Shown: positions 1-32,061 of the stretch, in pieces
Layout: every line of letters begins with the position of its first letter
Position numbering within the stretch: the first letter of the stretch is position 1
Source of the DNA: a virus
Taxonomy: Duplodnaviria; Heunggongvirae; Uroviricota; Caudoviricetes
Strand: one strand, 5' to 3'
IMG/VR virus record: IMGVR_UViG_2778261231_000006
Location: 1 to 36,223 of that record
DNA length: 36,223 nt
Notes under the pieces: generated by a model
The model's input: only the letters and a program-made list of their open reading frames with translations
Told to the model about the DNA's origin: nothing
The model's database searches: none
Made by a program: the position numbers and the translations under genes

Positions 1-1362
1 ATGTTTAAACCGGAACTCCTTTCCCCGGCGGGAACGCTGAAAAATATGCGTTACGCTTTCGCTTATGGCGCAGATGCTGTTTATGCGGGCCAGCCGCGTT
101 ACTCCCTGCGTGTGCGCAACAACGAATTCAACCACGAAAATCTTCAGCTCGGCATCAATGAAGCCCACGCGCTGGGGAAAAAGTTTTATGTCGTGGTCAA
201 CATTGCACCGCACAACGCCAAGCTGAAAACCTTTATCCGTGACCTGAAACCGGTGGTGGAAACGGGGCCGGATGCGCTGATTATGTCCGATCCAGGGCTG
301 ATTATGCTGGTGCGTGAGCACTTCCCTGAAATGCCGATCCACCTCTCGGTGCAGGCTAACGCCGTAAACTGGGCGACGGTGAAATTCTGGCAGCAAATGG
401 GCCTGACCCGCGTGATCCTCTCTCGCGAGCTGTCGCTGGAAGAGATTGAAGAGATCCGCAATCAGGTGCCGGATATGGAGATCGAGATCTTCGTTCACGG
501 CGCACTGTGCATGGCCTACTCCGGTCGCTGCCTGCTCTCTGGCTATATCAACAAGCGCGATCCGAACCAGGGTACCTGCACCAACGCCTGCCGCTGGGAG
601 TACAACGTCCAGGAAGGGAAAGAAGATGACGTTGGCAACATCGTACACAAGTACGAGCCGATTCCGGTGCAAAATGTTGAGCCGACGCTGGGTATCGGCG
701 CGCCAACCGACAAAGTGTTTATGATCGAAGAAGCCCAGCGTCCGGGCGAGTATATGACCGCGTTTGAAGATGAGCACGGCACTTACATCATGAACTCGAA
801 AGATCTGCGCGCCATCGCCCATGTAGAACGCCTGACCAAAATGGGCGTGCATTCGCTGAAAATCGAAGGCCGTACTAAATCTTTCTACTATTGCGCACGC
901 ACCGCACAGGTTTACCGTAAAGCTATCGATGACGCCGCTGCGGGCAAACCGTTCGATACCAGCCTGCTGGAAACTCTGGAAGGTCTGGCGCATCGTGGCT
1001 ATACCGAAGGTTTCCTGCGTCGTCATACTCACGACGATTATCAGAACTACGAATACGGTTATTCAGTTTCTGACCGCCAGCAGTTTGTTGGTGAGTTTAC
1101 CGGTGAGCGCAAGGGGGACCTCGCGGCGGTAGCGGTGAAAAATAAATTCTCCGTTGGCGACAGCCTTGAGCTGATGACGCCGCAAGGCAACATTAACTTT
1201 ACCCTTGAGCACATGGAAAACGCCAAAGGTGAAGCGATGCCGGTCGCACCAGGCGATGGTTATACTGTGTGGCTCCCGGTCCCGCAGGATCTTGAGCTCA
1301 ATTACGCTCTGCTGATGCGTAATTTCTCCGGGGAAACCACGCGTAACCCACACGGTAAGTGA
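1..1362 (+). CDS. yegQ: Peptidase U32 family protein YegQ (TrhP-type), complete 453 aa, host gene
   Basis: ORF 1..1362 begins MFKPELLSPAGTLKNMRYAFAYGADAVYAGQPRYSLRVRNNEF, recognised as E. coli YegQ; length matches 453 aa. Confidence 0.88.
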   Translation: MFKPELLSPAGTLKNMRYAFAYGADAVYAGQPRYSLRVRNNEFNHENLQLGINEAHALGKKFYVVVNIAPHNAKLKTFIRDLKPVVETGPDALIMSDPGLIMLVREHFPEMPIHLSVQANAVNWATVKFWQQMGLTRVILSRELSLEEIEEIRNQVPDMEIEIFVHGALCMAYSGRCLLSGYINKRDPNQGTCTNACRWEYNVQEGKEDDVGNIVHKYEPIPVQNVEPTLGIGAPTDKVFMIEEAQRPGEYMTAFEDEHGTYIMNSKDLRAIAHVERLTKMGVHSLKIEGRTKSFYYCARTAQVYRKAIDDAAAGKPFDTSLLETLEGLAHRGYTEGFLRRHTHDDYQNYEYGYSVSDRQQFVGEFTGERKGDLAAVAVKNKFSVGDSLELMTPQGNINFTLEHMENAKGEAMPVAPGDGYTVWLPVPQDLELNYALLMRNFSGETTRNPHGK

Positions 1363-1934: not shown

Positions 1935-3098
1935 TTACTCGTCATCTTCTGTTTCGTACTCCACATCAGAAAGCATGACCTCAAGCTCTAAGGACGTCGT
2001 GAAGCCGCTATTATTCAGAAAATGTGTCACCTTAGTGATTGTCCAGTCCTGCTCGTCTATGACGCGCTTAAAGCCTGACACTTTAACCGGTGTTTCCGTG
2101 TAAATATCAGCACGACCAGTGGCAAGGCTGATGGAGAACTCCGCAACGCCCCGTTGCAGTTTATCCCACTTCGCCTGAGCGGCGCGCATGGCCTGTGCTT
2201 TCGTGGCATATACCGTAGTCAGGGCAAAAACGTTGTCAGCTTCACCGGCCATGTATTCACCTTCGCGCGCTTCCGGTACTTTTGGCGCTTTCTTCTGCGT
2301 GACCGGTTTCGCTTTCGGGTGCTCCAGTGCGCGCAGGTGTTTTTCTTTCTTTTTGCGTTTCAGTTTTACCTTCTGCTTTTGCGGCTTCGGGTCTTTGGTG
2401 TGTAACCACTTTGCCGTTACGCCGGTGTAAGCTCCACGGTCAGCAATCGCAAAATGATGACGGTCGCCGTCGCTGCGGGTGATGGTAATCTGCGGGATTT
2501 TTTTACCGCTGGCCGTCACCCCCTGCCCCGCCTTAAGAAACAACAGTTTTCCCATTTTTACCGACACCTCACCGCCGTTGCGTTCAGCAAGACGGGTCAG
2601 GAATTTCGCATCAGACTCCTGCGACTGGTCGATGTGCGGGATTTTAATTCCGGCCAGTGACGGAGCGACACTGGCCTCCAGCTTGTTACGGGAGGCTATC
2701 ACCTCAACAATCGCACCGAGTGTGGTGTCATGCCAGGAGCCTTCCCGGCGGGAATTGAGCGTCCCGCGAAAATCTGCACTCCGGGCGCGGATGGTGACCA
2801 CATCCGGCGCGCCCCTGTGTTCAACCTCATCAACGGTAAATTTCCCTTTGCATACCAGGGCAAAACCTTTCCAGCCGATATACACCGTCAGGACAGCGCC
2901 ACGAATCGGTAGCCCGACCTGCCCGTCGGCATCGTTCAGTTCAATATCAAGCTGGTCAGCCTCAAAGCCCCGGTTATCGGTCAGGGTCATGCTCATCAGA
3001 CGGTCGCTGATATTGCCGGTAATATCCCTGCTGTCGAGCATCAGCATGTAATCCGGCGTCAGCGTACTGCCTGCATCAAATGTCAGCGCATCCAGCAT
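1935..3098 (-). CDS. D: Tail protein gpD
   Basis: 387 aa, MLDALTFDAGSTLTPDYMLMLDSRDITGNISDRLMSMTL, recognised as P2 gpD; position after U. Confidence 0.93.
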   Translation of the reverse strand: MLDALTFDAGSTLTPDYMLMLDSRDITGNISDRLMSMTLTDNRGFEADQLDIELNDADGQVGLPIRGAVLTVYIGWKGFALVCKGKFTVDEVEHRGAPDVVTIRARSADFRGTLNSRREGSWHDTTLGAIVEVIASRNKLEASVAPSLAGIKIPHIDQSQESDAKFLTRLAERNGGEVSVKMGKLLFLKAGQGVTASGKKIPQITITRSDGDRHHFAIADRGAYTGVTAKWLHTKDPKPQKQKVKLKRKKKEKHLRALEHPKAKPVTQKKAPKVPEAREGEYMAGEADNVFALTTVYATKAQAMRAAQAKWDKLQRGVAEFSISLATGRADIYTETPVKVSGFKRVIDEQDWTITKVTHFLNNSGFTTSLELEVMLSDVEYETEDDE

Positions 3099-3577
3099 TA
3101 TCCCGCCCCCGTCATACCCGTGAATCTGGTCGCCATACTGCCAGCCTTACCGATGAGCGATTCCGCCTGTTTACCGATATCGCCATAAAGCGCGGCCAGT
3201 GATTCATCAACGCGGGTGAGCGACAGCGTAAAATCAATTTTCCGGGGTGTGCCGTCTGCAAAGAAAATACTCCCTGTTTCACTCACCCTGCTGATGACAT
3301 ACATGCCGTAAATCATGCCGGTGCCATCCAGCAACGGCCACGCCCGGCCTTCCTCAGCCATCATCCTGAGCGTGGTCATCGTCAGCTTGCCGCCGGTCAG
3401 TTCGGGATAAAGCACACCGGCAAGCGTCATGTTTTCCTCGCCAACACCGAGAAACTGGTAGGCATCCCGTTTACCGATACGGGAATTTGACGGCCAGCGA
3501 TAATCTGATTCACGCTGCATGGTCTGGTGTGGCAGCGTCTGGCGCATAAAAACAAACATACCTAACGCGAGCATCAT
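3098..3577 (-). CDS. U: Tail protein gpU
   Basis: 159 aa, MMLALGMFVFMRQTLPHQTMQRESDYRWPSNSRIGKRDA matches remembered P2 gpU. Confidence 0.93.
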   Translation of the reverse strand: MMLALGMFVFMRQTLPHQTMQRESDYRWPSNSRIGKRDAYQFLGVGEENMTLAGVLYPELTGGKLTMTTLRMMAEEGRAWPLLDGTGMIYGMYVISRVSETGSIFFADGTPRKIDFTLSLTRVDESLAALYGDIGKQAESLIGKAGSMATRFTGMTGAG

Positions 3578-3591
3578 TTTTCGTCACCTCC

Positions 3592-6039
3592 TTAACCGTC
3601 ATGCATCATGCTGGCACGGGCGCGCACACGTTTATCCCGCTCGTATTTTTCGAGCGCATCCTGTAACTGGCGGTCAAGCTGTGTCCCCGGCGCAGTACCA
3701 CCCGTCAGGCTGATGTGATATTCGTTTTTACTCTGGTCCACATAAGAGCGGCCAGCCGGTGCCGTGACCGGCTGATAAGCCTGATAGCCTGCATAAGAGC
3801 TGGTCGCCGGAATATAACCACCGCTGCCATACGTGGCGGCTTGAGTTCTGGCGGCGGTCTGGTCAAGTGTGTCTGACTCTTTGTTGATAACACCGAGTTT
3901 TTCCAGTACCCAGTCAATACCGCTGCGCAGTTTGTTGAACGCATTAAGCGGCAGCATCAGCGCGTCAGCCAGTGCCTGCCCGAACATGACCCCCGTGTCA
4001 CGGCAACTGTTCAGGGTGTCCTGAGTGGCTTTGACCGGAGCAATCAGGTTTTTAAACCACTGCCACGCGGCCTGTAACTTTTCACCCAGCCAGTCAAACA
4101 CCGGCTTAAGTGGCGTGAACAGTTCCCCCACCGGCGCAAATGCCACTTTCAGCCCTTCAACCACACCGCCAAAGAATGCGCTGACAGGCTCCCAGTATTT
4201 ACGGATAAGCAACGCCCCGGTGACAATTGCGGCCACCACGGCCACAACCGGCCAGCTAATAGCCCCGATGGCGGTCATAACAGCACTGCCAACCGTCGTG
4301 AAGACTGCCCCCATTGCGCCTGCTGCCGCGATGATGGCATTGATGCCGGTGATAACCGGCCAGGCTACGAGGCCAATGGCACCGATGATGCCAGTCAGCG
4401 CCAGCGCGCCACCGGCAATGATGCCGATGGTTGACGCCAGTGATTTGTTTTTCTGGATCCAGCCGTCGAGTTTTAACACATACTTTGTGGCCGTCTGCGT
4501 GAGCTTACGCAGCGCGCCTTCCTGCTGGTCAAACAGGTCAGTCCCCACTGCCTCATAAGCGGACTGAAACTCTTTAAAGTCACCGCCTAGGTTGTCCTGC
4601 ATGATATTTACCAGCTTGGCGGTCTTCCCGTCTGAGGCTTTAAACGCAGCGGTCAGTTTGTCCAGCTTTCCGGTTGAGGCGGCAGTCATCAGCACGGCGG
4701 CGGCTGAGCTGGCCTCCTCCCCGAAAATAGTTTTCATGTATTCAGCCTGCTGGGCAGTACCGAGCCGGTTTTTCTCAAAACTGGCCTGCATTTCTTTCAG
4801 AATGGTAAATATTGGCCGGGTGTTTCCCTTGCTGTCTGAGGTTTTCACTCCAAGCTCTTTGAGTGCATCCCATGCTTTTCCCGTCGGTGCCTGCAGGCGG
4901 CTTAACACGGCACGGCTTCCCGTCCCCGCCATTGAGCCTGTGATTTTTGCATCATGCAGCGCCCCGACCATTGCGGCGGTTTCTTCAATGCTGACACCGG
5001 CATTTTTTGCCACAGGTGCGGCATAGGTCAGCGCATCGCTCATGCCGTCAAAATCGGCGGCGGTTTTGTTCATCGTCATGGAGAGAACATCCCCGATATG
5101 AGCGACCTTATCGTTTGAAAGCTGAAAGGCGGATTTCATCCCCATCAGCAGGGCGGCGTTTTCTTCCATCGTGCGGCGGTTCGCCAGCGCCATATTCAGC
5201 GTGACCGGCGTTGCCGCCTGAATGGCATCAACATCCCCACCCGCTTTCGCGATGATTATCTGTGCACCGGCCGCATCATCCGCCGAGGCGGCGGTATTGT
5301 CGCCGAGCTGGCGCGCCTGTTTGCGTAGTGCGGTCATTTCGGCGGAGTCTTTTGCCACTCCGAGCACGGCCTGCAATTCTGAGTTTTTCTGCGCAAACTC
5401 ATAACCGGGCATCAGCAACTTAACTCCGGCCATCGTTCCCGCCGCCGCAATCCCCACACCGGCAGCGCCTACTGAGGCCATATTTCCGGCCAGTTCCTTT
5501 CCGGCCTGATAACGCTGTTTGACTGCGTTAAGTTTTGCCTGTTGCGCACTGACACGCGCCAGCGCGTCGCGCTGACGGTTAAGCTGTGCGGTGGTTTCAC
5601 TGATACGTTTTTTCAGTCCCTGCTCATCATGTGCAAGATTGCGGGTATTAATTCCCACAGCGGCCAGTTCCCGCTGCTGGCGTTTAACGGAATCCGTCAG
5701 GCGGTTATATTTCGCCTGTAAGTCCTCCGCCGCTCGCTTTGCGGATTCCAGCACTTTCGCCTGAGCACGGGTCGGACGTTCGGTGTTTTTAAACTGTGTG
5801 GCAAGGGCTTCGGCTTCCTGCCGTGCCTTTTCAAGTGCATGACCAGTCACGGCGAGCTGCGCACTGGTCTTGCGAAATCCCTCAATACGGGATGCGTGAC
5901 CGTTCAGCTCGCGCAGTGATTTTTGTGTTTCCCGGATATCCCCCGACAGCGACTTGCTCGCTGTGCGGATGGATTTAAACGGGCGGGATGCCTGGTCAAC
6001 AGCCCTGAGCAATACCTGTAATTTTACATTGTTACTCAT
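3592..6039 (-). CDS. T: Tail tape-measure protein gpT
   Basis: 815 aa, coiled-coil N-terminal half, Ala/Gly-rich hydrophobic core, position between E' and U. Confidence 0.93.
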   Translation of the reverse strand: MSNNVKLQVLLRAVDQASRPFKSIRTASKSLSGDIRETQKSLRELNGHASRIEGFRKTSAQLAVTGHALEKARQEAEALATQFKNTERPTRAQAKVLESAKRAAEDLQAKYNRLTDSVKRQQRELAAVGINTRNLAHDEQGLKKRISETTAQLNRQRDALARVSAQQAKLNAVKQRYQAGKELAGNMASVGAAGVGIAAAGTMAGVKLLMPGYEFAQKNSELQAVLGVAKDSAEMTALRKQARQLGDNTAASADDAAGAQIIIAKAGGDVDAIQAATPVTLNMALANRRTMEENAALLMGMKSAFQLSNDKVAHIGDVLSMTMNKTAADFDGMSDALTYAAPVAKNAGVSIEETAAMVGALHDAKITGSMAGTGSRAVLSRLQAPTGKAWDALKELGVKTSDSKGNTRPIFTILKEMQASFEKNRLGTAQQAEYMKTIFGEEASSAAAVLMTAASTGKLDKLTAAFKASDGKTAKLVNIMQDNLGGDFKEFQSAYEAVGTDLFDQQEGALRKLTQTATKYVLKLDGWIQKNKSLASTIGIIAGGALALTGIIGAIGLVAWPVITGINAIIAAAGAMGAVFTTVGSAVMTAIGAISWPVVAVVAAIVTGALLIRKYWEPVSAFFGGVVEGLKVAFAPVGELFTPLKPVFDWLGEKLQAAWQWFKNLIAPVKATQDTLNSCRDTGVMFGQALADALMLPLNAFNKLRSGIDWVLEKLGVINKESDTLDQTAARTQAATYGSGGYIPATSSYAGYQAYQPVTAPAGRSYVDQSKNEYHISLTGGTAPGTQLDRQLQDALEKYERDKRVRARASMMHDG

Positions 6040-8883: not shown

Positions 8884-10698
8884 GTGACTAAATATATTTT
8901 CAGTATCAATGATTTAATTTTATCAAAAAATGCACAATTTTTTAAGATAAAAAAACCTTTATCTAGAAATAAAATAAAAAATCTATTTAGAAGCATATCC
9001 TCGATAAAAGATGGTGTCTTTCTTATAAATAAAATTAAATCTGAAGTTGTTGTAGATAATGGGAATTTAACTTACTCTTTGGTGTCTTTTAAAGTTCTAG
9101 AAGAGCCTTCATTTCTACAAGGCACTAGCATTTCAGAAAGCAAGTATGCGTATCTAATGATCTTGGAGGTTCAGGATTTTTTAATAATTTCGAAGAAAAA
9201 TGTTGATGCAATTGAAAGCGAGTTGGAAAGGTTCATAGAATACTTTGAGTTTGATAAATTTTCAAATTTTAATGGAAGGCTGAATCCTGAGTATGAAAAA
9301 ATTAGCATGAGGAATATGTCACTGTCAGATTCAGTGATAAGAAATAGAACAGTGGAAGCAAAAAATCTAAGTGGCATTCTTTCTCCTAACACGACTGGAC
9401 GTTCAATTCCAGGGACATTTAGAGTCAAGACAGGAAATGACATATTTACTTTAACACCAAATACTTCACGAATAGGCTACAAAGATAAAAAAGTGGATTT
9501 TTTTAATTTCTGCTCATGGGCAATAGCTACAGTAAATGAATTATCTAACACAGCCTCTTTGTCAAGTAAGCTAATGGCAGGTTTCTCTTCCCCTATTACT
9601 TTGAGTGAATTATTAGCAAAAAAAGTCAAGCCAAAAGCTATTTTTATAGATCTTAGCGAGTTGGATGATATGGTGCGTGGCACGTCCCATACTTTTACAC
9701 TAACAAAAAATGTGCCTCATGGAACGGTGACGTTAAGTTCTGTTGAACTTGACAAATTTTTCAATGGATTTAAATCATCATATTTCTTAGATGGTGAAAC
9801 GCTAACCAATTTAAGATTCAAATTCAAATGTCGTCTGAGATTCAATACTAAGGTTGTGACTATAGTATCCAAATATCTCGATGGTATAATGATTAGTGAA
9901 AATGGTTCTCAGTTAATGTCGCTTAGTAAATATATTAACAAGTTTAAGCCATTCACTATAACCTTCGATTCCCCCCAATATTGCTATCATGGTCGTTCGT
10001 GTTTTGAAGATAAAACGATGTTAAATAATTTGAATATTTTCCTGTCCGTTTTTGATGATAGCTTTGATTTTTCAACAATCAGATCGGAAAAAGAGAAAGA
10101 TGACAAACAATCTTATCCAGAAAATATTAAAAGATTTCCAGTGAGATCGCTATTTAGACGAGTGGAGAATATCTATTCAAATAAAGATGCTATTGTAATT
10201 TGTGATGATATGAATGATGAGTGGGCCGATCATATTGTGCTGGATATCACGACAGGAAATCCATCCATAAAGTTTATTCATTCTAAATATATTAAAAAAG
10301 AGAGCTATGGCGCCAGTAAATTTCATGAAGTTATAAGTCAAGCTTTAAAAAATATTGGCAGATTACATTCACCAAAAGAACTTTACCTTGATAAATATGA
10401 TAATGAATGGTCTTCAAAATATTTACAAACGCAGATTAGTAGAATTAGACCAATTGACACTTCCAGGAATGACATTGAGTTAGCTCTTGACAAAATTAAT
10501 GAGAGTCCGAAAACTAGTAGGGAGTTAATATTAGCTGCTCCATTTTTAAGAAAAAAAATGTTAATCGATGAGGTGGAAATCATCAAGAGAAATCAGTCAG
10601 CCAAACCTTATACTGTTCAGCTAATCTGGCTTATAAATACATTTTTGAGTGCATGTGTTGAGTACGGAGTAAAACCCAGCATTCTATGTAAGAAGTGA
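8884..10698 (+). CDS. Hypothetical 604-aa cargo protein at the Z/fun moron site; soluble, function unknown
   Basis: Long uninterrupted ORF in AT-rich DNA, GTG start 7 nt after AAGGA, antisense to the flanking late genes; no Walker A seen by eye; acidic segment VICDDMNDEWADHIVLD...IHSK around residue 440. Confidence 0.8.
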   Translation: MTKYIFSINDLILSKNAQFFKIKKPLSRNKIKNLFRSISSIKDGVFLINKIKSEVVVDNGNLTYSLVSFKVLEEPSFLQGTSISESKYAYLMILEVQDFLIISKKNVDAIESELERFIEYFEFDKFSNFNGRLNPEYEKISMRNMSLSDSVIRNRTVEAKNLSGILSPNTTGRSIPGTFRVKTGNDIFTLTPNTSRIGYKDKKVDFFNFCSWAIATVNELSNTASLSSKLMAGFSSPITLSELLAKKVKPKAIFIDLSELDDMVRGTSHTFTLTKNVPHGTVTLSSVELDKFFNGFKSSYFLDGETLTNLRFKFKCRLRFNTKVVTIVSKYLDGIMISENGSQLMSLSKYINKFKPFTITFDSPQYCYHGRSCFEDKTMLNNLNIFLSVFDDSFDFSTIRSEKEKDDKQSYPENIKRFPVRSLFRRVENIYSNKDAIVICDDMNDEWADHIVLDITTGNPSIKFIHSKYIKKESYGASKFHEVISQALKNIGRLHSPKELYLDKYDNEWSSKYLQTQISRIRPIDTSRNDIELALDKINESPKTSRELILAAPFLRKKMLIDEVEIIKRNQSAKPYTVQLIWLINTFLSACVEYGVKPSILCKK

Positions 10699-10770: not shown

Positions 10771-11353
10771 GTGAAATTAGGCCCATTTATTAACATTGCT
10801 AACTCTAACCAAATTCCTAAATCCCATCTTCCGCCTCACAATTCCTTAATTCAAACTAGACGTTTCCCGCGCAATACAAAGCAATCTCTTGATAACAATG
10901 GTATGGAACTGAACGTTGAGTGCCTAGTAGGTGAAGAAGATGGGGTATATGGCCTGATATTTGAGCCCTGAGGACTGGCGCATAGAAACAAAGATTATAA
11001 TATTGCCATCGATTATATCATTGGACGACTTATTGATTCCGGGGTAAACAAAGGCGTTGTGTATTTGGCCTCATCATCAACCGGAAGACATATACCATCT
11101 ATAGCGGAAAGAAAAATACATCCTGATGATGTAATTTTCTTTAGTGGGAAACTACCCTTCCGATATTTCCCAAAAAATGTGTATGTATCAGACTCATTTG
11201 AACAGTACTGCTAAAAAGGATGCACCATCAGGGAACAGAACTGAGCGAGTAATGATAAATGTTCCTAGTGTTAATAGTGCTGAATTTTGGAAACCTATCA
11301 TCTACGGAGATACATCAGTGCTTTTCGAGCCACTAATGATGAGAGTGTTCTAA
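10771..11353 (+). pseudogene. Disrupted ORF chain (in-frame TGA at 10969..10971, then apparent +1/-1 shift near the A6 run 11172..11177); likely pseudogene
   Basis: Frame of the 10771 ORF stays open past the TGA (…GLIFEP*GLAHRNKDYNIAIDYIIGRLIDSG…FPKNVYVSDSFEQYC) and a one-base change at the A6 run joins it to the 11144..11353 ORF. Confidence 0.4.
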
Positions 11354-11474
11354 GTAAAATGGTCAGTAAGCTAATATAAATTCCTTTGAACGAGTCCGAG
11401 GGACATAAAAAACTGGAACATTAGAAAGAGTTCAGAAGGTTTATATTCGGGATCCTGCTGTTAAATCTTGTGTA

Positions 11475-11711
11475 TTGCAAGGGAATAAGGGCGTTTGTGA
11501 AAGATGTAGTGAAAATACACCGTTCTTAATAAATGGCGATATCCCATATCTCGAAGTGTATCATGTGATACCTCTTTCTTTATCTGGTGCTGACACCATA
11601 AGCAATTGTGTTGCATTATGCCCGAATTGCCATCGGGCATTGCATTACAGTCAAAATTCGGAAGAGCTGATTGAGGAACTTTATATAAACATAAAAAGAT
11701 TGCAAAGATGA
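11475..11711 (+). CDS. HNH-nuclease motif ORF, probably a C-terminal fragment (open frame extends back to 11409 with no ATG/GTG)
   Basis: …RDPAVKSCVLQGNKGVCERCSENTPFLINGDIPYLEVYHVIPLSLSGADTISNCVALCPNCHRALH: CxxC…H…N…CxxCH…H pattern typical of HNH; TTG start only. Confidence 0.5.
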   Translation: MQGNKGVCERCSENTPFLINGDIPYLEVYHVIPLSLSGADTISNCVALCPNCHRALHYSQNSEELIEELYINIKRLQR

Positions 11712-17189: not shown

Positions 17190-18263
17190 ATGAACACTTA
17201 CTTTTTCTCATCAAAAACAATGAAAGAATTGTTCAAAGATTATCTGGTCTTTTTGAACACGCTGACACCCAGCACAACCTTTGAATCAAACAGAAACAAA
17301 ATAATTGCTCAAGCAATAGACTTCATTTCTGAAAACCCAGAAGATTGGGACAAAAAATCCCAGTACAACATTGTCAGGATTGGTAATACCTTTACAAGCT
17401 TATTAAAAGAAAAGGGAGAGGATAACAACAGCATCAATTTTATATTCACTTGTTTTTTTAGATTTATTATTGAGCCAAGTATTCTCTCTCCTGAGACAGA
17501 TACTTTCTTTTCACCACTAAAAACCATCAAGGATTTCGCGCTGTATAACTATAATGAATTCGATGAACAAAGCAGAGCACAGATAGACTTTTCTCTTAGA
17601 GAACTACCATTAGCAATGGTTAAAGAAGTTTTAAGCTCAGGCAATGTGGACACATATAAAAAATATATTGATAGTTTAAGCGAAGGTCGTCAATTTTTCG
17701 AAAAATGCGAGTCCTTTTTAAAAGAACAACATACCAAAATAGAGTCAATTAAAGAATCATTGAAAGGGTATGAGGTCGCATTTAATTTTGTTGGATTGTT
17801 TGAAGGCTTTAATTCACTTGGCAAAAAGAAAGATCGTGAAATTTTACTATCAAGAATAATCCTTGTCATCTTAGCTATAATCATCCCATCCCCGCTGATA
17901 TACTATGGAGTGCATAAATTACCAACTCTCGAAACGACAAATGCTGCCACATATTTCATGTCAGCACTACCTTTTGCATCAGTCACATTGATTTTCATTT
18001 ATTACTTTAGAGTTGTACTGATAAATCACATATCGTTACGAACTCAGATTATGCAAATAGAACTCAGAAAGAGCCTTTGTCAGTTTATTCAGAGTTATAG
18101 CGACTATTCCTCAGAGATAAGGAAAAACAATCCGGAAGCGCTTTCAAAATTTGAAGATGTCGTATTTTCGAACATCATGCTATCCGATGATAAGATACCA
18201 TCTACATTTGATGGCATAGAGCAAATAGCATCGTTAATCAATTCATTAAAAAATGGCAAGTAA
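17190..18263 (+). CDS. Hypothetical 357-aa cargo protein with two predicted C-terminal transmembrane helices, at the S/V moron site
   Basis: AT-rich ORF antisense to the late operons; hydrophobic stretches ILLSRIILVILAIIIPSPLIYYGV and ATYFMSALPFASVTLIFIYYFRVVLI; own terminator downstream. Confidence 0.75.
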   Translation: MNTYFFSSKTMKELFKDYLVFLNTLTPSTTFESNRNKIIAQAIDFISENPEDWDKKSQYNIVRIGNTFTSLLKEKGEDNNSINFIFTCFFRFIIEPSILSPETDTFFSPLKTIKDFALYNYNEFDEQSRAQIDFSLRELPLAMVKEVLSSGNVDTYKKYIDSLSEGRQFFEKCESFLKEQHTKIESIKESLKGYEVAFNFVGLFEGFNSLGKKKDREILLSRIILVILAIIIPSPLIYYGVHKLPTLETTNAATYFMSALPFASVTLIFIYYFRVVLINHISLRTQIMQIELRKSLCQFIQSYSDYSSEIRKNNPEALSKFEDVVFSNIMLSDDKIPSTFDGIEQIASLINSLKNGK

Positions 18264-24566: not shown

Positions 24567-24739
24567 TGTCAGGAGTCCTGAATAGTGATTAGAGGAGTCA
24601 CATGTCGGCATCAGTTTCCCGACGATGCGCATCCTCCGCCATCAGTCCCGGATGGCTTATCACTGACACAACAGCACCTTAGCGAATCGCGGGACGCGAC
24701 TCAGTAGCCTTGCCGTGTATTCATCACGGCGAGGTATTC

Positions 24740-26512
24740 ATGACCATCACCACAGACACCACTCTTTTACACGACCCGCGTCGTCAGGCGGCGCTGCTGT
24801 ACTGGCAGGGATTTTCCGTGCCGCAGATTGCCGCCATGTTGCAGATGAAACGCCCGACGGTGCAGAGCTGGAAACAGCGCGACGGCTGGGACAGCGTTGC
24901 CCCCATCAGCCGTGTCGAAATGAGTCTGGAAGCGCGGCTGACCCAGCTCATCATCAAACCGCAGAAAACCGGCGGTGACTTCAAGGAAATTGACCTGCTG
25001 GGACGCCAGATTGAACGACTGGCGCGGGTCAACCGCTACAGTCAGACCGGCAACGAGGCAGACCTTAATCCGAACGTCGCTAACCGCAACAAAGGCGGGC
25101 GCCGCAAACCGAAAAAGAATTTTTTCAGCGACGAAGCCATCGAAAAGCTGGAGCAGATTTTCTTTGAGCAGTCTTTCGAATATCAGTTGCACTGGTATCG
25201 CGCCGGGCTTGAGCACCGCATCCGCGATATCCTGAAATCCCGCCAGATTGGCGCAACGTTTTATTTTTCCCGCGAGGCGCTGCTGCGCGCCCTGAAAACC
25301 GGCCATAACCAGATTTTTCTGTCGGCCAGTAAAACGCAGGCGTATGTGTTCCGCGAATACATCATCGCCTTTGCCCGTCTGGTTGACGTTGACCTGACCG
25401 GTGACCCGATTGTCCTGGGCAATAACGGCGCAAAACTGATTTTTCTCGGCACCAACTCCAACACCGCGCAGAGCCATAACGGCGACCTGTACGTCGATGA
25501 GATTTTCTGGATCCCGAATTTTCAGGTACTGCGTAAGGTGGCATCAGGTATGGCCTCACAGAGTCACCTGCGTTCGACCTATTTCTCCACCCCGTCCACG
25601 CTGGCGCACGACGCCTACCCGTTCTGGTCGGGTGAACTGTTTAACCGGGGACGCGCCAGCGCCGCTGAACGCGTGGAAATCGACGTCAGTCATAACGCAC
25701 TTGCCGGAGGTCTTCTCTGTGCGGACGGCCAGTGGCGGCAGATTGTCACCATTGAGGACGCCCTGAAAGGCGGCTGCACGCTGTTCGACATTGAGCAGCT
25801 CAAACGCGAAAACAGCGCCGACGATTTTAAAAACCTGTTCATGTGTGAATTTGTTGACGACAAGGCGTCGGTGTTCCCGTTCGAGGAGTTGCAACGCTGC
25901 ATGGTCGACACGCTGGAAGAATGGGAAGACTATGCGCCGTTTGCCGCCAATCCGTTCGGCTCACGCCCGGTCTGGATTGGTTACGACCCGTCACACCGTG
26001 GCGACAGCGCCGGATGCGTGGTACTGGCACCGCCGGTGGTTGCCGGTGGCAAATTCAGAATACTTGAGCGTCACCAGTGGAAAGGCATGGACTTTGCCAC
26101 CCAGGCGGAATCCATCCGCAAACTCACCGAAAAATACAACGTCGAATACATCGGTATTGATGCCACCGGCCTCGGTGTCGGCGTGTTCCAGCTCGTGCGC
26201 TCGTTCTATCCTGCCGCGCGCGACATCCGCTACACGCCGGAAATGAAAACCGCAATGGTGCTCAAGGCAAAAGACGTTATCCGCCGTGGCTGTCTGGAAT
26301 ACGACGTCAGCGCCACCGACATCACCAGCTCGTTTATGGCTATCCGCAAGACCATGACCAGCAGCGGACGCAGCGCCACCTATGAGGCCAGCCGCAGCGA
26401 GGAAGCCAGCCACGCCGACCTCGCCTGGGCGACCATGCACGCCCTGTTAAATGAGCCACTCACCGCCGGTATCAGCACCCCGCTGACATCCACCATTCTG
26501 GAGTTTTACTGA
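24740..26512 (+). CDS. P: Terminase large (ATPase) subunit gpP
   Basis: MTITTDTTLLHDPRRQAALLYWQGFSVPQIAAMLQMKRPTVQSWKQRDGWD; 590 aa from ATG 24740; divergent from O. Confidence 0.93.
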   Translation: MTITTDTTLLHDPRRQAALLYWQGFSVPQIAAMLQMKRPTVQSWKQRDGWDSVAPISRVEMSLEARLTQLIIKPQKTGGDFKEIDLLGRQIERLARVNRYSQTGNEADLNPNVANRNKGGRRKPKKNFFSDEAIEKLEQIFFEQSFEYQLHWYRAGLEHRIRDILKSRQIGATFYFSREALLRALKTGHNQIFLSASKTQAYVFREYIIAFARLVDVDLTGDPIVLGNNGAKLIFLGTNSNTAQSHNGDLYVDEIFWIPNFQVLRKVASGMASQSHLRSTYFSTPSTLAHDAYPFWSGELFNRGRASAAERVEIDVSHNALAGGLLCADGQWRQIVTIEDALKGGCTLFDIEQLKRENSADDFKNLFMCEFVDDKASVFPFEELQRCMVDTLEEWEDYAPFAANPFGSRPVWIGYDPSHRGDSAGCVVLAPPVVAGGKFRILERHQWKGMDFATQAESIRKLTEKYNVEYIGIDATGLGVGVFQLVRSFYPAARDIRYTPEMKTAMVLKAKDVIRRGCLEYDVSATDITSSFMAIRKTMTSSGRSATYEASRSEEASHADLAWATMHALLNEPLTAGISTPLTSTILEFY

Positions 26513-27546
26513 TGAGTAAGAAAAAAGGGAAAACACCGCGACCTGCGGCAAAAACAATCACCGCCAGCGCCCCGAAAATGGAAGCATTCACCTTTGGCGA
26601 GCCGGTGCCGGTACTCGACCGCCGTGACATTCTGGATTACGTCGAGTGCATCAGTAACGGCAGATGGTATGAGCCACCAGTCAGCTTTACCGGTCTGGCA
26701 AAAAGCCTGCGTGCTGCCGTGCATCACAGCTCACCGATTTACGTCAAACGCAATATTCTGGCTTCAACGTTTATCCCGCATCCGTGGCTTTCGCAACAGG
26801 ATTTCAGCCGCTTTGTGCTGGATTTTCTGGTGTTCGGTAATGCGTTTCTGGAAAAGCGTTACAGCACCACCGGTAAGGTCATCAGACTGGAAACCTCACC
26901 GGCAAAATATACCCGCCGTGGTGTGGAAGAGGATGTTTACTGGTGGGTGCCGTCCTTCAACGAGCCGACAGCCTTCGCACCCGGCTCCGTGTTTCACCTG
27001 CTGGAGCCGGATATTAATCAGGAGCTGTACGGCCTGCCGGAATATCTCAGCGCCCTTAACTCTGCCTGGCTGAATGAGTCGGCCACGCTGTTCCGCCGCA
27101 AGTATTACGAAAACGGCGCTCATGCCGGATACATCATGTACGTCACCGATGCCGTGCAGGATCGCAACGATATCGAAATGCTTCGCGAAAACATGGTTAA
27201 GTCGAAAGGCCGCAATAACTTTAAAAATCTGTTTCTCTATGCCCCACAGGGGAAAGCCGACGGCATTAAAATTATCCCGCTCAGTGAAGTGGCAACGAAG
27301 GACGATTTTTTTAATATCAAAAAAGCCAGCGCCGCTGACCTGCTGGACGCGCATCGCATCCCCTTTCAGTTGATGGGGGGCAAGCCGGAGAACGTCGGGT
27401 CGCTGGGTGATATTGAGAAAGTGGCAAAGGTCTTTGTCCGCAATGAGCTTATCCCGTTACAGGACAGGATCCGCGAGATAAACGGCTGGCTCGGTCAGGA
27501 GGTCATCCGATTTAAAAACTACTCACTGGACACTGACAACGGCTGA
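26512..27546 (+). CDS. Q: Portal protein gpQ
   Basis: 344 aa, MSKKKGKTPRPAAKTITASAPKMEAFTFGEPVPVLDRRDILDYVECISNGRWYEPP. Confidence 0.93.
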   Translation: MSKKKGKTPRPAAKTITASAPKMEAFTFGEPVPVLDRRDILDYVECISNGRWYEPPVSFTGLAKSLRAAVHHSSPIYVKRNILASTFIPHPWLSQQDFSRFVLDFLVFGNAFLEKRYSTTGKVIRLETSPAKYTRRGVEEDVYWWVPSFNEPTAFAPGSVFHLLEPDINQELYGLPEYLSALNSAWLNESATLFRRKYYENGAHAGYIMYVTDAVQDRNDIEMLRENMVKSKGRNNFKNLFLYAPQGKADGIKIIPLSEVATKDDFFNIKKASAADLLDAHRIPFQLMGGKPENVGSLGDIEKVAKVFVRNELIPLQDRIREINGWLGQEVIRFKNYSLDTDNG

Positions 27547-27551
27547 ACATC

Positions 27552-27573
27552 GCCGCCTGCGGGCGGCTTTTTT
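27552..27573 (+). terminator. Intrinsic terminator after Q (GCCGCC-TGCG-GGCGGC then T6)
   Basis: Perfect GC stem immediately followed by TTTTTT, 6 nt after the Q stop. Confidence 0.65.
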
Positions 27574-27715
27574 ACACCCCGTCATCACCCCCTCACACGC
27601 TCACCACCGCACAAAACACCCCGCAGACACACCAACGCCTCAACGGGCAGACTAAGCGCCGTCACGACGCGCTGAGACGCTGAAAAAATAAAATCCGCAC
27701 CACCGCCAGCGCGCA

Positions 27716-27734
27716 GTGCTTTCCCCGCCTCGCC
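27716..27734. other. cos: cos site: 19-nt cohesive-end sequence (reverse complement GGCGAGGCGGGGAAAGCAC)
   Basis: Exact match to the remembered P2 cohesive-end 19-mer, located just past Q as in P2. Confidence 0.8.
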
Positions 27735-27897
27735 CGCCCGCTTCATGGAGCGCTTTTAATGCAGTTGCAATAACACATCAAAACATCGTCAATACAGGCG
27801 ATTATAAACAATAAAAAACGATCGCTGCCGCATGCAAAATCATGCACTAAATGCATGTATTGAAGGGAAATTAGGAACGTGCTCGTTTGGGTCTAAA

Positions 27898-28794
27898 CTA
27901 TGATTTCGACACAACTATTTTCCCCAAATCAAAACTAAATTCGACATCCCCATTTACGATATTTTCATTTGTCACATGCTCATCAAAAAGGTCACTAACA
28001 TCATACCCCGACTGAAACACTGGGCTCATGATAGCCACGTCGGTGAATGGCTCTTTTTCATGTGTTATATAATATTGACCATAAACATTTGCAGATTCAT
28101 CTGCATCATTAAGACTAAGGACTGTTTTTGCTTTGACTTCAGGCATCAGAGAAAAATCAATATTATTCAACAAACACAGTAAGATGCCTGCTATTGTTCT
28201 CCTGTTATTATCAAGCGGCATCAAGTCCACCCCTGGAATCTCCTTCCGAAGCAATATTTTCAGCTCATTAAATAAAGAGTCGAACTTAATTGCGTCAGAA
28301 CAATTGAGTAACGACAAAGCTTCATTAATCATTCGCCCTTCATTGGAACCAATTTCTGATGTTAACTTACAAACACCATCATTAACAATATACGATTTTT
28401 TGTTATTAAGCTTCTTCCTCGCTGTAATTACCTGCCCCCCCTTTAAGTTTAACTTCTCCTTTAAAAACTCATCACTGAACATTCTTAATTGCAGTCTGAT
28501 TAATGTAGGTAAGTATTTCGGGTATTCATTTAACTCTGGTTTAACAGCATGCTTGTCGCGTCCAAATTTTAAACTTAATAACAAATGATTCCTCAGCATG
28601 ATATCCTTTATCTCGCCTTGATCTCTCCGATGATTATGGGCAACAAAACTCCCAATTTCAAAAATACACTTGGGCGCACTCGGCAACTCACGGGCCGTAA
28701 CAAAAAGAACATCAATATCACTATCAGTGAAACTCCCATCCTTTAATCTTCTCAACACTCTCTCTATTCTTGAGATTGCTTTACTTTTATTCAT
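27898..28794 (-). CDS. Hypothetical 298-aa cargo protein at the cos-proximal (tin/old) moron site; function unknown
   Basis: AT-rich ORF MNKSKAISRIERVLRRLKDGSFTDSDIDVLFVTARELPSAPKCIFEIGSF…; ATG with upstream AAGG/GAAAGAA; no TM helix or nucleotide-binding motif seen by eye. Confidence 0.75.
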   Translation of the reverse strand: MNKSKAISRIERVLRRLKDGSFTDSDIDVLFVTARELPSAPKCIFEIGSFVAHNHRRDQGEIKDIMLRNHLLLSLKFGRDKHAVKPELNEYPKYLPTLIRLQLRMFSDEFLKEKLNLKGGQVITARKKLNNKKSYIVNDGVCKLTSEIGSNEGRMINEALSLLNCSDAIKFDSLFNELKILLRKEIPGVDLMPLDNNRRTIAGILLCLLNNIDFSLMPEVKAKTVLSLNDADESANVYGQYYITHEKEPFTDVAIMSPVFQSGYDVSDLFDEHVTNENIVNGDVEFSFDLGKIVVSKS

Positions 28795-29120
28795 GACATT
28801 CTTTCAACCTTAATCAATATTTAATTTAAATAAACCATTCTCATACGCCAACCATACCTGTGACACCTGACAAACCAAATAAAAACAAAGGTACAGCGGA
28901 TATTGGTATGTACAGCTATATTACACATAAACTCATGTTAGTAACATAAGATCTTCTTGTGAATATTTGTAATTTATTAGTTCACCAACATTAATCTTTC
29001 CAACCGTTATAAATCCAATCATATGCTGATACTCAAATGACGGCCAACTACCACCTCGCGCTGTTCGTTGTTCCCTCCAGCAGCACTGGAAGCATGTTTC
29101 AGTACTGCTGGGGTTTTCTA

Positions 29121-29336
29121 TCAACAACGTGGTAGCAGTGCAATTTTAGACTGTTCTATATCGTTAAACCGCACGTAATTATCCCGGACTATTTCGGCAC
29201 ACCCGACCAACTCGTCGGGCGTCAGATTTTCGTTGACCATAATCTGCTGTAGACGGTGAACAATAGCCATCAGCTTGATATTTTTAGTGTTATGTTGCGG
29301 TATCTCGCCTAGTATTCTGTGCATTATCCAAGCCAC
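29121..29336 (-). CDS. Small hypothetical protein (71 aa), start overlaps the end of the upstream DUF3850-like gene
   Basis: ORF MAWIMHRILGEIPQHNTKNIKLMAIVHRLQQIMVNENLTPDELVGCAEIVRDNYVRF; overlap suggests coupling; no homology recognised. Confidence 0.35.
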   Translation of the reverse strand: MAWIMHRILGEIPQHNTKNIKLMAIVHRLQQIMVNENLTPDELVGCAEIVRDNYVRFNDIEQSKIALLPRC

Positions 29337-29779
29337 CCGTTTTGCTTTGCACGCTCAATCTGTTCATCTGAATAGTTCCATGCTCCATCCGTGGCAACCA
29401 TTGCCCCGCCAGACATCCCCGTCTCTGGTTCATACATAACAGCAAGGCCGAGCTGATGCATAATTTCATGATTAATTCTGAATACCAGACCACGCTCACT
29501 AAGTTCTTTCCAGTTCACAATCTCATATGCGCCTGTATTAAGCAGCTCAATACTTAGCAAGACATAATCTTCCAGCCAGTCTGACAGGTCAGTAACATCT
29601 GTTATCCGGGCTTCAACCTTTCGCCCCGTATACACACCCTGCACCCATTCATGCAAAATCAACGTGTCCCCGCGCTCATAATTACGGTCATTTTTCCGAA
29701 ACTCTGCGCGTTTCTTTCCTTCCAGCACAAGGTCGAAATATTTTGCGTGCAGCTTTACCTCGTGAATTTTTGCCATCAT
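29324..29779 (-). CDS. DUF3850/ASCH-like domain protein with C-terminal HExxH motif, translationally coupled to A
   Basis: MMAKIHEVKLHAKYFDLVLEGKKRAEFRKNDRNYERGDTLILHEW resembles DUF3850; INHEIMHQLG contains HExxH; ATGATGG start overlaps the A stop TGA. Confidence 0.65.
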   Translation of the reverse strand: MMAKIHEVKLHAKYFDLVLEGKKRAEFRKNDRNYERGDTLILHEWVQGVYTGRKVEARITDVTDLSDWLEDYVLLSIELLNTGAYEIVNWKELSERGLVFRINHEIMHQLGLAVMYEPETGMSGGAMVATDGAWNYSDEQIERAKQNGWLG

Positions 29780-32061
29780 GTCCACTCCATTACTGTTGAG
29801 AATCCCGGCCACTCATCAGCGACCGGATACGTGAATTTTTTCCCGTCATAATTTACGGTTGCCCCACGCGCCAGCGCCTCAATCTCCCGTCGCTGCGGCC
29901 TGATACCGTTCTGAGCAAGGTCAACGCGGATACGGGTAATTTGCGTTCGTTCCGACCGGGTCAGTCTGGCCGATGGCGCTATTTCATGTGGTTTTAACAG
30001 GCTTCCGTTTCTCTGCTGACGATTTGGTGTTCTCAGTCCGTGTTTTAATGCACCTCTGAGCACCCTCACGACCTCTGGCTCATTCCATTCGATAACACCG
30101 TCATCAACCAGATTAAGCACGGCTGCGGCATGTTCAGAAGGTGTGGGAACCGGTAACGAAGTATCACCACCGGTGAGCTTTCTACAGTTATTGACAGGAC
30201 TCCGAGGCGCGGCGATGCCGCTTTTTAAAGTCAAAGGCTCAACGACCGGAACTTTCGGCACAATGCGCCAGTCCGTGGTTCTGGTGATATGAATATGACG
30301 CGCGCCGAGATGCGGCGCGTAAATGCCGACCACTCTCTCGACCTCTTCCTCGTACTCGTTAACGTCATCCGACGGGCTACGGGCGACTCTGACAGTCTGA
30401 CAATCGCGCGGAACATTTGCCCCACCCTGCGCGCTGATATACAACGCAAAATCACCACTGTCTGCGGCAGCGCGAGCAGCCTCGACGCGTTCGTCAAACT
30501 CATCAGCAATACTGACGCCGCGAGGCAATTTGCGTAGTTCACGGTAAGCCCCCATTGTCGGCAGTCCAACCGTTTTAAATTGCGGGATGCGCCACGTTGA
30601 CGCCCATGCGGTAACAGCCGCGGCAGTATCTTTAAGCGGCTTACCGGTATCGTTATCGAGCTGACCATCCAGTGCATAGCCGTCGATATTTTTTGAAATG
30701 TATTTCGCGATATATCCCGCAGCACCGCCCCGGTTAAGGTGCTTTGCCTGAAAACGGTTTCGCGCGGCTCCTCTTTCGTCACCATCCTCTTTGAGCGCAT
30801 AGCGACGCATGATTTCGATAATCTGGTTACGCTGGCGTGGATTACAAAAAAGCATCATATGCCAGTGCGGCGTTCCGTCGTGGTGTGGCTCGACGACACG
30901 CAAACCGTAGACCTGTAAATCATTATCCTTGAATGCCGTGCGCATCAGGCTCCAGATGCGGCAGAGATAACGCTGCGCATCCTTTGGATTAAATGCCTCA
31001 TCGTTCCAGCCGTGATTAAGCTGAACGGTTTTACTTTCGCCTTTTCTGACCTGACGAGTCGGGTGATACTTTGACGGCGCGGTCAGCGTGATAAACATCC
31101 CCACATCACCCTCTGCGGCGGCGTAACGCTCAATTCCAGCGATGGTGTTCATCAGCTCCATCCGGCGAATTTCAGGATTAGAAATACTGCCCATCACCTT
31201 ACTGATAAGGTCGATGCGCTCGCCGGTTTCCCTGTTTTCAAGGTCACACGATTTAAGAAATTCCAGATTTGCCTGGCGGCGTGCACGCACATCCCGAATG
31301 GCATGTTTACTGGCATAAGGAGAACGGTCTTTATTGACCTCCCCGACAGCTATCAGTAACGCCTCATGCCAGCGCATACGCTGGCCTTTAAGCTGATGAG
31401 TCCACCACTCATCGTTAAACAGACGGGCAATGGCAGAATATGCCTGCCTCGTGGTCATCTGTCCTTTACGGTATTTTTTCCAGTAGAGAGGGGAAATATT
31501 GAAAGCACGTGCAGCGCCAGCAACATGACCATAGAGGTGAGCCTGCGCCTCATCCGTAAACAGCGATTCTTTCTCGCCATGCGCATCCACCCAGGCATCG
31601 CAGAGTTCCTCATACATCATGAAAAGCTGCGATGAGATACGGGCAGCAAACTTTTTCAGCTCCTTGTCATTCATTCCCGGCAGGCGCGCATACTGGTCGC
31701 GCTCTGCCAGAAACAGCAACGACGCATCGGTGTTCATTTCATGGCGCTGATTCACGCGCTCAATGCGCGGCCATAAACGACGCTGAAAAGTGGATGTGAG
31801 GAAATAAAACCCGTGCACCGGGCTTTTATTGCGCCTGATGTAGTCATAGCGTGAAGTAAACAGCGAGCGCAAAAAGTAAGGCAGGCGGTTAATCGTGGAT
31901 AAAACACCTTGCACCTGACGCATCTCATCACGTGTAAGAGGTCTTTCGCGCCCGACAGCCTCGCGTGGCGCGTTCCATGCATAAGCACCGGTAAACATCT
32001 TACCGGTGCCTGCGGCAAATGCTGACGGAGGGACAAAACGCCCGGAGGCTTTAACGGCCAT
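29776..32061 (-). CDS. A: Replication initiation protein gpA (rolling-circle nickase)
   Basis: MAVKASGRFVPPSAFAAGTGKMFTGAYAWNAPREAVGRERPLTRDEMRQ; 761 aa from internal ATG 32061. Confidence 0.93.
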   Translation of the reverse strand: MAVKASGRFVPPSAFAAGTGKMFTGAYAWNAPREAVGRERPLTRDEMRQVQGVLSTINRLPYFLRSLFTSRYDYIRRNKSPVHGFYFLTSTFQRRLWPRIERVNQRHEMNTDASLLFLAERDQYARLPGMNDKELKKFAARISSQLFMMYEELCDAWVDAHGEKESLFTDEAQAHLYGHVAGAARAFNISPLYWKKYRKGQMTTRQAYSAIARLFNDEWWTHQLKGQRMRWHEALLIAVGEVNKDRSPYASKHAIRDVRARRQANLEFLKSCDLENRETGERIDLISKVMGSISNPEIRRMELMNTIAGIERYAAAEGDVGMFITLTAPSKYHPTRQVRKGESKTVQLNHGWNDEAFNPKDAQRYLCRIWSLMRTAFKDNDLQVYGLRVVEPHHDGTPHWHMMLFCNPRQRNQIIEIMRRYALKEDGDERGAARNRFQAKHLNRGGAAGYIAKYISKNIDGYALDGQLDNDTGKPLKDTAAAVTAWASTWRIPQFKTVGLPTMGAYRELRKLPRGVSIADEFDERVEAARAAADSGDFALYISAQGGANVPRDCQTVRVARSPSDDVNEYEEEVERVVGIYAPHLGARHIHITRTTDWRIVPKVPVVEPLTLKSGIAAPRSPVNNCRKLTGGDTSLPVPTPSEHAAAVLNLVDDGVIEWNEPEVVRVLRGALKHGLRTPNRQQRNGSLLKPHEIAPSARLTRSERTQITRIRVDLAQNGIRPQRREIEALARGATVNYDGKKFTYPVADEWPGFSTVMEWT

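Follow-up and report, generated by a model that had tools for sequence, protein, structure and literature searches.

The 36,223-nucleotide stretch of DNA analysed here (IMG/VR record IMGVR_UViG_2778261231_000006, positions 1 to 36,223; hereafter the window) holds a P2-like (Peduovirus) prophage of E. coli, and the interval between its replication gene A and its cohesive-end site cos carries an AT-rich cargo gene for a protein of 298 amino acids (aa). This gene is real and under purifying selection. Its product belongs to a family of ~300-330-aa proteins that are always encoded by single genes in variable or mobile contexts, and it has no detectable kinship to any characterised family or solved fold. 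The protein may well act as a single-protein phage-exclusion or abortive-infection factor, an assignment that we hold tentatively and rate at somewhat less than an even chance. The gene is already catalogued in two published surveys and is a sharpened candidate, not a discovery.

The gene, an open reading frame (ORF) at 27898-28794 on the minus strand, encodes a soluble cytoplasmic protein of 33.8 kDa with an isoelectric point (pI) of 6.6 and no transmembrane segment. Measured against a 74%-identical Klebsiella homologue, its ratio of nonsynonymous to synonymous substitution rates (dN/dS) is 0.10 at a dS of 1.6, and an AlphaFold2 model built from a 27-sequence alignment reaches a mean predicted local distance difference test score (pLDDT) of 91.5 and a predicted template modelling score (pTM) of 0.86. 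A search of 5.8 billion proteins retrieved 34 clusters (90% identity) that match over the full length at E<=1e-65, and their named sources are all Enterobacterales: E. coli, Citrobacter, Klebsiella, Salmonella, Cronobacter, Serratia and Dickeya. When the alignment profile was compared with 1.84 billion representatives, 430 clusters (50% identity) matched at E<=1e-3 and 127 of them at E<=1e-10; these proteins are mostly 290-340 aa long and align mainly to residues 8-230. The distant clade defined in this way is common in Pseudomonas, Acinetobacter, Marinobacter, Alteromonas, Vibrio and Aeromonas, and extends to Betaproteobacteria and Bacteroidota. Among the PHROGs, the only match is a full-length one to phrog_29586, a group of unknown function. 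A preliminary description of the window, made from the letters alone, had correctly reported an AT-rich 298-aa ORF in the cos-proximal interval known from P2 and no recognisable motif within it, and was mistaken in calling the sequence an orphan. The notion of a non-functional chance ORF in AT-rich DNA has nothing in its favour except the absence of annotation, and it is practically excluded by the low dN/dS, by the full-length conservation across the 34 and the 430 clusters and by the confident structural model.

The search for a known relative was negative at every level. The protein has no match in Pfam or NCBIfam, and none of the families in PADLOC-DB v2.0.0 (5027 hidden Markov models) reaches even E<=1. 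Ten distant relatives likewise match no Pfam, NCBIfam or PADLOC family, apart from one weak match to Cas13b (E 0.009), and when Pfam matches were counted at E<=10 over 48 family members, no Pfam family was matched by more than two of them. Queried with the protein itself and with two profiles, the PDB sequences gave nothing below E 0.26, and fold comparison with PDB and BFVD yielded no convincing match. Homology to Tin, to Old or to another characterised family, which the preliminary description had named as the finding that would overturn its proposal, was looked for by BLASTP, hhalign, Pfam and PADLOC, and none was found. For P2 Tin (NP_046797, 253 aa), the best BLASTP alignment has an E-value of 0.36 over 21 residues and the profile-sequence comparison in hhalign a probability of 0.35%; for P2 Old, a protein of 586 aa, neither the ABC-type ATPase nor the Toprim domain is detected in the 298-aa protein by Pfam or PADLOC. 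The sequence hallmarks of the HEPN ribonucleases (Las1, Cas13 and abortive-infection HEPN proteins) were looked for and not found. Their R-x(4-6)-H motif is lacking: the conserved order here is H53-x3-R57 with R35 lying 18 residues upstream, and an alternative centred on R68-N69 of the Enterobacterales clade lacks a histidine at +5 to +7 and is not kept in the wider family. None of the HEPN models of Pfam matches any of the 48 members even at E 10, and among generic helical matches HEPN proteins are not conspicuous.

Conservation is concentrated in the N-terminal helical domain. Across 48 sequences, which diverge down to ~17% identity, the invariant residues are R35, A52, H53 and G60 and the near-invariant ones F22, R57 and P92; a 32-sequence alignment restricted to this domain supports the invariant and near-invariant columns too. 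Glu46 is conserved in either clade taken by itself. The following segment, residues 93-147, suggests a winged helix by its modelled topology (helices at 95-103, 108-115 and 119-129, then strands at 135-138 and 141-144, with a third helix rich in Lys and Arg) and by weak sequence hints, namely a Rex winged helix at E 0.26 and scattered helix-turn-helix (HTH) matches in Pfam above E 0.007; no fold match confirms the resemblance. Residues 148-210 form a helical linker in the model. The C-terminal beta domain is the least conserved part of both alignments (A1 and A2), and profile matches to distant relatives mostly end at about residue 230.

The position of the gene is that of a known cargo site. 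The 19-nt cohesive-end sequence of P2 (GGCGAGGCGGGGAAAGCAC) occurs exactly once in the window, at 27716-27734, is found in none of 100 shuffled sequences and is identical without mismatch to cosR of P2 (NC_001895). Since cos ends at 27734, position 27735, at which the segment flagged by the preliminary description starts, is the first base past it, and the cargo gene lies 164 bp from cos. In P2 the A-to-cos interval contains orf91 (annotated as DUF3850), tin and old. The GC content of the cargo gene is 36.8% versus 52.8% for portal gene Q and 53.1% for gene A. Segments common to sequenced P2-like phages end at ~27775 and restart at ~28932, which delimits a cargo-specific insert of ~1.15 kb containing the cargo gene alone. 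The gene thus lies, like other cargo of the gpA-gpQ hotspot, in variable content between A and Q that adjoins cos. Among 5426 complete E. coli genomes, 2155 match the flanks and only 25 carry the cassette.

The placement of close relatives is uniform. In all seven places examined in the Enterobacterales clade (the window and loci L003, L006, L026, L027, L028 and L029, with E. coli, Klebsiella and Dickeya among the named hosts), proteins 42-99% identical are encoded between GPA and the portal gene, next to the latter, in P2/186-like prophages. One of these places, L026 (GCA_964063365.1, OZ061329.1, 4916-7855), is a decayed P2-like prophage between the host genes can and hpt, in which GPA and the portal gene survive as fragments of 276 and 131 aa and a 295-aa cargo homologue is intact. 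An intact gene in a dead prophage fits selection by the host, not by the phage, and the cargo of this locus looks as if it had been domesticated after the phage was lost. A search by tblastn of 50,697 phage records, 75 of them P2-like with the same flanks, found no family member, which argues against a role in the lytic cycle or in counter-defence.

Distant relatives occupy more varied sites. One Pseudomonas relative lies at a prophage end, past the lysis genes, and an Alteromonas relative in an island with the S subunit of a type I restriction-modification system, a HipA_2+DUF3037 protein, an integrase and a resolvase. Others directly adjoin an AbiLi/PDC-M38 pair (E 2e-42) and an AriA/GajA-like ATPase. 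Relatives of ~26% identity are found on a 5.3-kb Psychrobacter plasmid, pA21BP1 (L038, 2081-2992), and on an 11-kb plasmid of Acinetobacter pittii (L039, 3908-4792), the latter beside a BrnT/BrnA toxin-antitoxin pair and a DUF4747 gene. Further distant relatives are located in small variable chromosomal spots, some of them among HxlR and TetR regulators or the trp operon, and integrases account for 4 of 130 neighbours of distant relatives. When the genes within 5 kb at 17 distant-clade loci were compared all against all by BLASTP, no family of neighbours recurred, and a two-gene system with a conserved partner or antitoxin was rejected.

Five features of this record support phage exclusion: the fixed hotspot position across diverged prophages; survival in a prophage that has otherwise decayed; relatives carried by plasmids and islands or located next to known defence genes; absence from phage isolates; and the combination of a conserved N-terminal with a variable C-terminal part, a possible effector-sensor arrangement. 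Also counted as support is the cargo of another hotspot of the same prophage, where PDC-S71 and a broken type IV restriction gene represent candidate-defence and restriction-type genes. In this reading the product would be a 'moron', a prophage cargo protein that acts alone and helps the lysogen by keeping other phages out. Its proposed mechanism is of low certainty. The basic N-terminal half may bind nucleic acid, and the cluster of Arg35, His53 and Arg57, possibly with Glu46, would act on nucleic acid, for example as a metal-independent nuclease centre, or would stop the invader from being replicated or transcribed; the C-terminal domain, variable and acidic, could recognise a phage component or keep the protein autoinhibited. 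A more ambitious version, in which the 430 clusters from Gammaproteobacteria, Betaproteobacteria and Bacteroidota make up a hitherto unrecognised, new-fold family of single-protein anti-phage effectors, with the 298-aa protein as founding member, whose invariant Arg35/His53/Arg57(+Glu46) set in a small helical domain forms a new kind of metal-independent nuclease or nucleic-acid-modifying centre under the control of a variable acidic C-terminal sensor, seems quite unlikely.

Rousset et al. 2022 (Cell Host Microbe 30:740, PMC9122126) described 1,650 arrangements in 18,150 loci of the gpA-gpQ hotspot, and 'system 75' of their Table S5B is the 298-aa protein (the printed sequence is near-identical), listed as one gene with 53 occurrences among the 18,150 loci, no Pfam domain and no function given. 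The 1,041 uncharacterised E. coli clusters in Table S10 of DefensePredictor (DeWeirdt et al. 2026, Science, PMC13092281) include WP_001043197.1, identical to the window protein at 295 of 298 residues and labelled 'Predicted novel defense gene', with a mean log-odds of 4.64 (range 3.29-5.42; cutoff 4) and no HHblits or Foldseek match recorded. The claim that the A-to-cos position is a recognised defence hotspot is borne out by Rousset et al. 2022, with confirmation by de Sousa et al. 2026. Searched by accession and peptide, the supplements of Vassallo 2022 and de Sousa et al. 2026 did not contain the 298-aa protein.

A number of observations weigh against phage exclusion. Only three of eight further cloned systems from the P2 hotspot protected against phages, and the hotspot also holds non-defence cargo: roughly one P2-like phage in four has a partition system there, and a cytolethal distending toxin occurs as well (Rousset et al. 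2022, PMC9122126). Neither the protein nor the DNA sequence of system 75 appears among the cloned systems in Table S2 of that study. The mean log-odds of WP_001043197.1 is barely above the cutoff, the validation rate in DefensePredictor climbed with log-odds and was 45% overall, and in the tables of that study (PMC13092281) the accession was found in S10 alone and not among the 94 transcription units cloned. The score moreover partly repeats the argument from hotspot position and AT-richness, since GC content and neighbours are features of the model. Our search found no published experiments on the protein (Brenes & Laub 2025, Cell Host Microbe 33:1004, lay outside this search). Recognisable defence genes lie near only 3 of ~24 distant loci, a weak enrichment. 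The putative promoter and terminator of the cargo gene (Table 1) are weak candidates at chance level, which we do not use as evidence of expression: sigma-70-like sites in the cargo region are as numerous as expected by chance, and the putative hairpin region has a folding z-score of 0.23, which is not significant. Finally, the cargo gene is oriented in the direction of the early operon and a consensus scan detected no terminator upstream of it, so that expression in the lytic cycle by read-through is possible. The preliminary proposal of a defence candidate is thus reasonable as a label, given the hotspot, the contexts of relatives and the machine-learning listing, with the qualifications that defence is only predicted and that the same hotspot has non-defence cargo too.

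The orientation also bears on the idea that the gene serves the phage itself, as an early-operon gene read through from A with a role in counter-defence or as a replication or packaging helper near cos. It runs in the same direction as A, the orf91 homologue and the 67-aa gene, no terminator was detected between them, and it adjoins cos, while the lysogenic-conversion genes old and tin of P2 are read oppositely from their own promoter. This explanation is nevertheless distinctly improbable in view of the absence of the gene from all the phage records searched, including those with the same flanks, the presence of relatives on plasmids and in chromosomal spots without phage genes, and the intact copy in the decayed remnant. 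The gene is also dispensable, as the small number of cassette-bearing genomes among those with matching flanks indicates, and anti-defence genes are known in only 28 of 1511 P2-like prophages (de Sousa et al. 2026). An unlikely account that still deserves serious weight is that of a non-defence accessory gene, encoding a DNA-binding regulator or host-modulating protein that alters host or prophage expression without affecting other phages. The basic middle segment with its winged-helix-like topology, the weak HTH and Rex hints, the demonstrated presence of partition systems and a cytolethal distending toxin in the hotspot, and the occurrence of several distant relatives among ordinary chromosomal genes (HxlR and TetR regulators, trp operon) would all suit a regulator. 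The strictly invariant residues, however, lie in the N-terminal domain, outside the putative recognition helix, and the winged helix lacks a confirming fold match; no conserved adjacent target gene or operon was found at the 17 loci, and the patchy, mobile, single-gene spread over small plasmids and prophage ends is atypical of regulators.

A selfish stabilisation or toxin-like addiction module with no role in phage exclusion appears very improbable. It would explain single-gene cargo on very small plasmids, one of them with the BrnT/BrnA pair alongside, and the conserved Arg/His/Arg(/Glu) set could form the active site of a toxin; against this, no antitoxin partner is kept in the 17 loci, and the gene is rarely disrupted, the IS903B insertions in two genomes lying outside it. 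Because the roles of toxin-antitoxin and abortive-infection systems overlap, this alternative is not cleanly separable from defence. Inactivation of the cargo gene by IS903B in the two E. coli genomes concerned was itself considered and rejected: the element sits between the stop codon and cos, and in EC9952 (L030, 1902-2870) as well as in strain 23CRST029 both the cargo gene and the portal gene are intact.

Phage exclusion, the reading that we prefer, invites comparison with the cargo known from this site. With P2 tin and old the 298-aa gene shares the interval between gene A/orf91 and cos and the character of AT-rich accessory cargo for the benefit of the lysogen; it differs in having no similarity to Tin and no Old-type ATPase or Toprim domain, in its opposite orientation and in being a single gene where P2 has a pair. 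Among the validated single-protein defences of the P2 hotspot, the DUF4238 protein (Rousset et al. 2022, PMC9122126) is likewise the product of one gene, with no known enzymatic domain and with its own expression signals. The two proteins show no homology by PADLOC or Pfam, and a T7 phenotype has been demonstrated for the DUF4238 protein only. If protective, the 298-aa protein would add a new protein family to the single-gene defences, one that has no detectable relative of known function or structure and that reaches well beyond E. coli, being found in the P2/186-like prophages of Enterobacterales and, in marine and soil bacteria, in other prophages, in genomic islands and on small plasmids. 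The candidate is tractable, with a cassette of ~1.15 kb, a confident model and only three or four invariant polar residues, and it would also gauge how well hotspot position and machine-learning scores foretell defence.

The features of the locus are compiled in Table 1. Besides the cargo gene, which is indeed the sole gene of its cassette, the interval between A and cos contains the orf91 homologue and a 67-aa gene, both semi-conserved parts of the backbone, so that the preliminary statement of a single ORF holds for the cassette and not for the interval. Of the small upstream ORFs that were doubted there, the 67-aa gene is a real backbone gene, common to Wphi (where the homologous segment is annotated under gp92) and other P2-like phages, and the program-made ORF list gives it 71 aa by starting at a GTG further upstream. 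The 64-aa ORF, which starts with TTG, is the one that remains without support: the PHROGs offer nothing below E 0.089, and the stretch from ~28932 onwards, 79% identical to phages 9W and P22H4, is not annotated as a gene there. A scan of 27400-29500 against Rfam found no family at threshold, and a match to mir-15 in the intergenic stretch (29065-29123, minus strand) was discarded as chance at 23.8 bits against a gathering score of 57.3.

Table 1. Features of the cos-proximal interval and its flanks in the window, with the basis of each assignment
Feature	Position	Strand	Basis or remark
Terminase P and portal Q	24710-27546	+	
Portal gene Q, conserved cos-side flank	26512-27546	+	ORF list; RefSeq 'phage portal protein' in 99.9%-identical locus L001
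cos, P2 19-nt cohesive-end sequence, hotspot edge	27716-27734	-	Exact single match to GGCGAGGCGGGGAAAGCAC
Possible terminator hairpin, 41 bp past the cargo stop codon	27841-27857	-	Consensus scan only
Cargo gene, 298-aa protein	27898-28794	-	ORF, ATG start
Codons 211-298, variable acidic (pI 4.1) C-terminal beta domain	27901-28164	-	Model strands at 213-295
Codons 93-147, basic (pI 9.9), three helices and beta-hairpin, winged-helix-like topology	28354-28518	-	Model secondary structure
Codons 1-92, basic (pI 9.5) N-terminal helical domain, family hallmark	28519-28794	-	Most conserved part
Codons 46-60, motif E-I-x-x-F-V-A-H-N-x-x-R-D-x-G	28615-28659	-	Alignments of 48 and 32 sequences
R35 codon, invariant	28690-28692	-	
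Intergenic stretch upstream of cargo gene, 326 bp	28795-29120	-	Contains the 64-aa TTG ORF
64-aa TTG ORF	28933-29127	-	Without support
Possible sigma-70 promoter TTCACA-17-TAACAT, 141 bp upstream of the cargo start codon	28935-28963	-	Consensus scan, 9/12 positions
67-aa backbone gene	29121-29324	-	phrog_11386, E 5.6e-38; RefSeq WP_021517479.1
DUF3850/ASCH gene, P2 orf91 homologue, backbone	29324-29776	-	Pfam DUF3850 E 8e-18, DUF7415, ASCH; RefSeq annotation
Replication gene A, conserved opposite flank of hotspot, in early operon	29776-32061	-	ORF list; RefSeq 'replication endonuclease', 2286 nt, in L001

The prophage has other cargo as well. At the Z/fun position, between the tail sheath gene FI and the tail-fibre assembly gene G, an AT-rich island (8884-10698, plus strand, GC 0.30-0.38) encodes a 604-aa protein with no Pfam domain that matches PDC-S71, a candidate single-gene defence of PADLOC, over its full length (E 1e-218). 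Immediately beyond it, at 10771-11711 on the plus strand, ORFs of 66, 69 and 78 aa match one PADLOC model of type IV methyl-directed restriction at model positions 4-29, 89-151 and 201-277, and the last of them also matches Pfam HNH; the region looks like a frameshifted, decayed restriction gene beside PDC-S71. A third AT-rich island, located among the late genes (17190-18263, plus strand, GC 0.34-0.36) at what we take to be the P2 orf30 position, carries a 357-aa ORF that matches neither Pfam nor PADLOC, so that the prophage has two cargo genes without annotation. A host gene of the peptidase U32 family occupies the left end of the window (1-1362, plus strand; Pfam E 1e-88), which places the left prophage boundary at ~1.4-1.9 kb.

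Some minor observations concern the loci of relatives. On two short Klebsiella-type contigs (L004, 1258-1809; L005, 341-892), a 183-aa gene without a Pfam domain lies directly upstream of a 297-aa homologue (P0008); the window lacks a corresponding gene, and none is called at that place in the longer locus L003. In Aeromonas veronii (L034, 8429-9418), an unannotated 329-aa gene located 440 bp downstream of a family member of the same length was examined as a possible paralogue and dismissed, the hhalign probability being 0.14%. Lastly, in eight complete E. coli chromosomes (H37, H38 and H40-H45) the locus stands at exactly 2739-4515 on the minus strand. Because 2739 equals the sum of 2286 nt for A and 453 nt for the DUF3850 gene, base 1 of each of these eight records appears to be the opening base of the P2-like gene A, and we suspect that start-fixing software took the phage replication gene for the gene that marks the chromosomal start.

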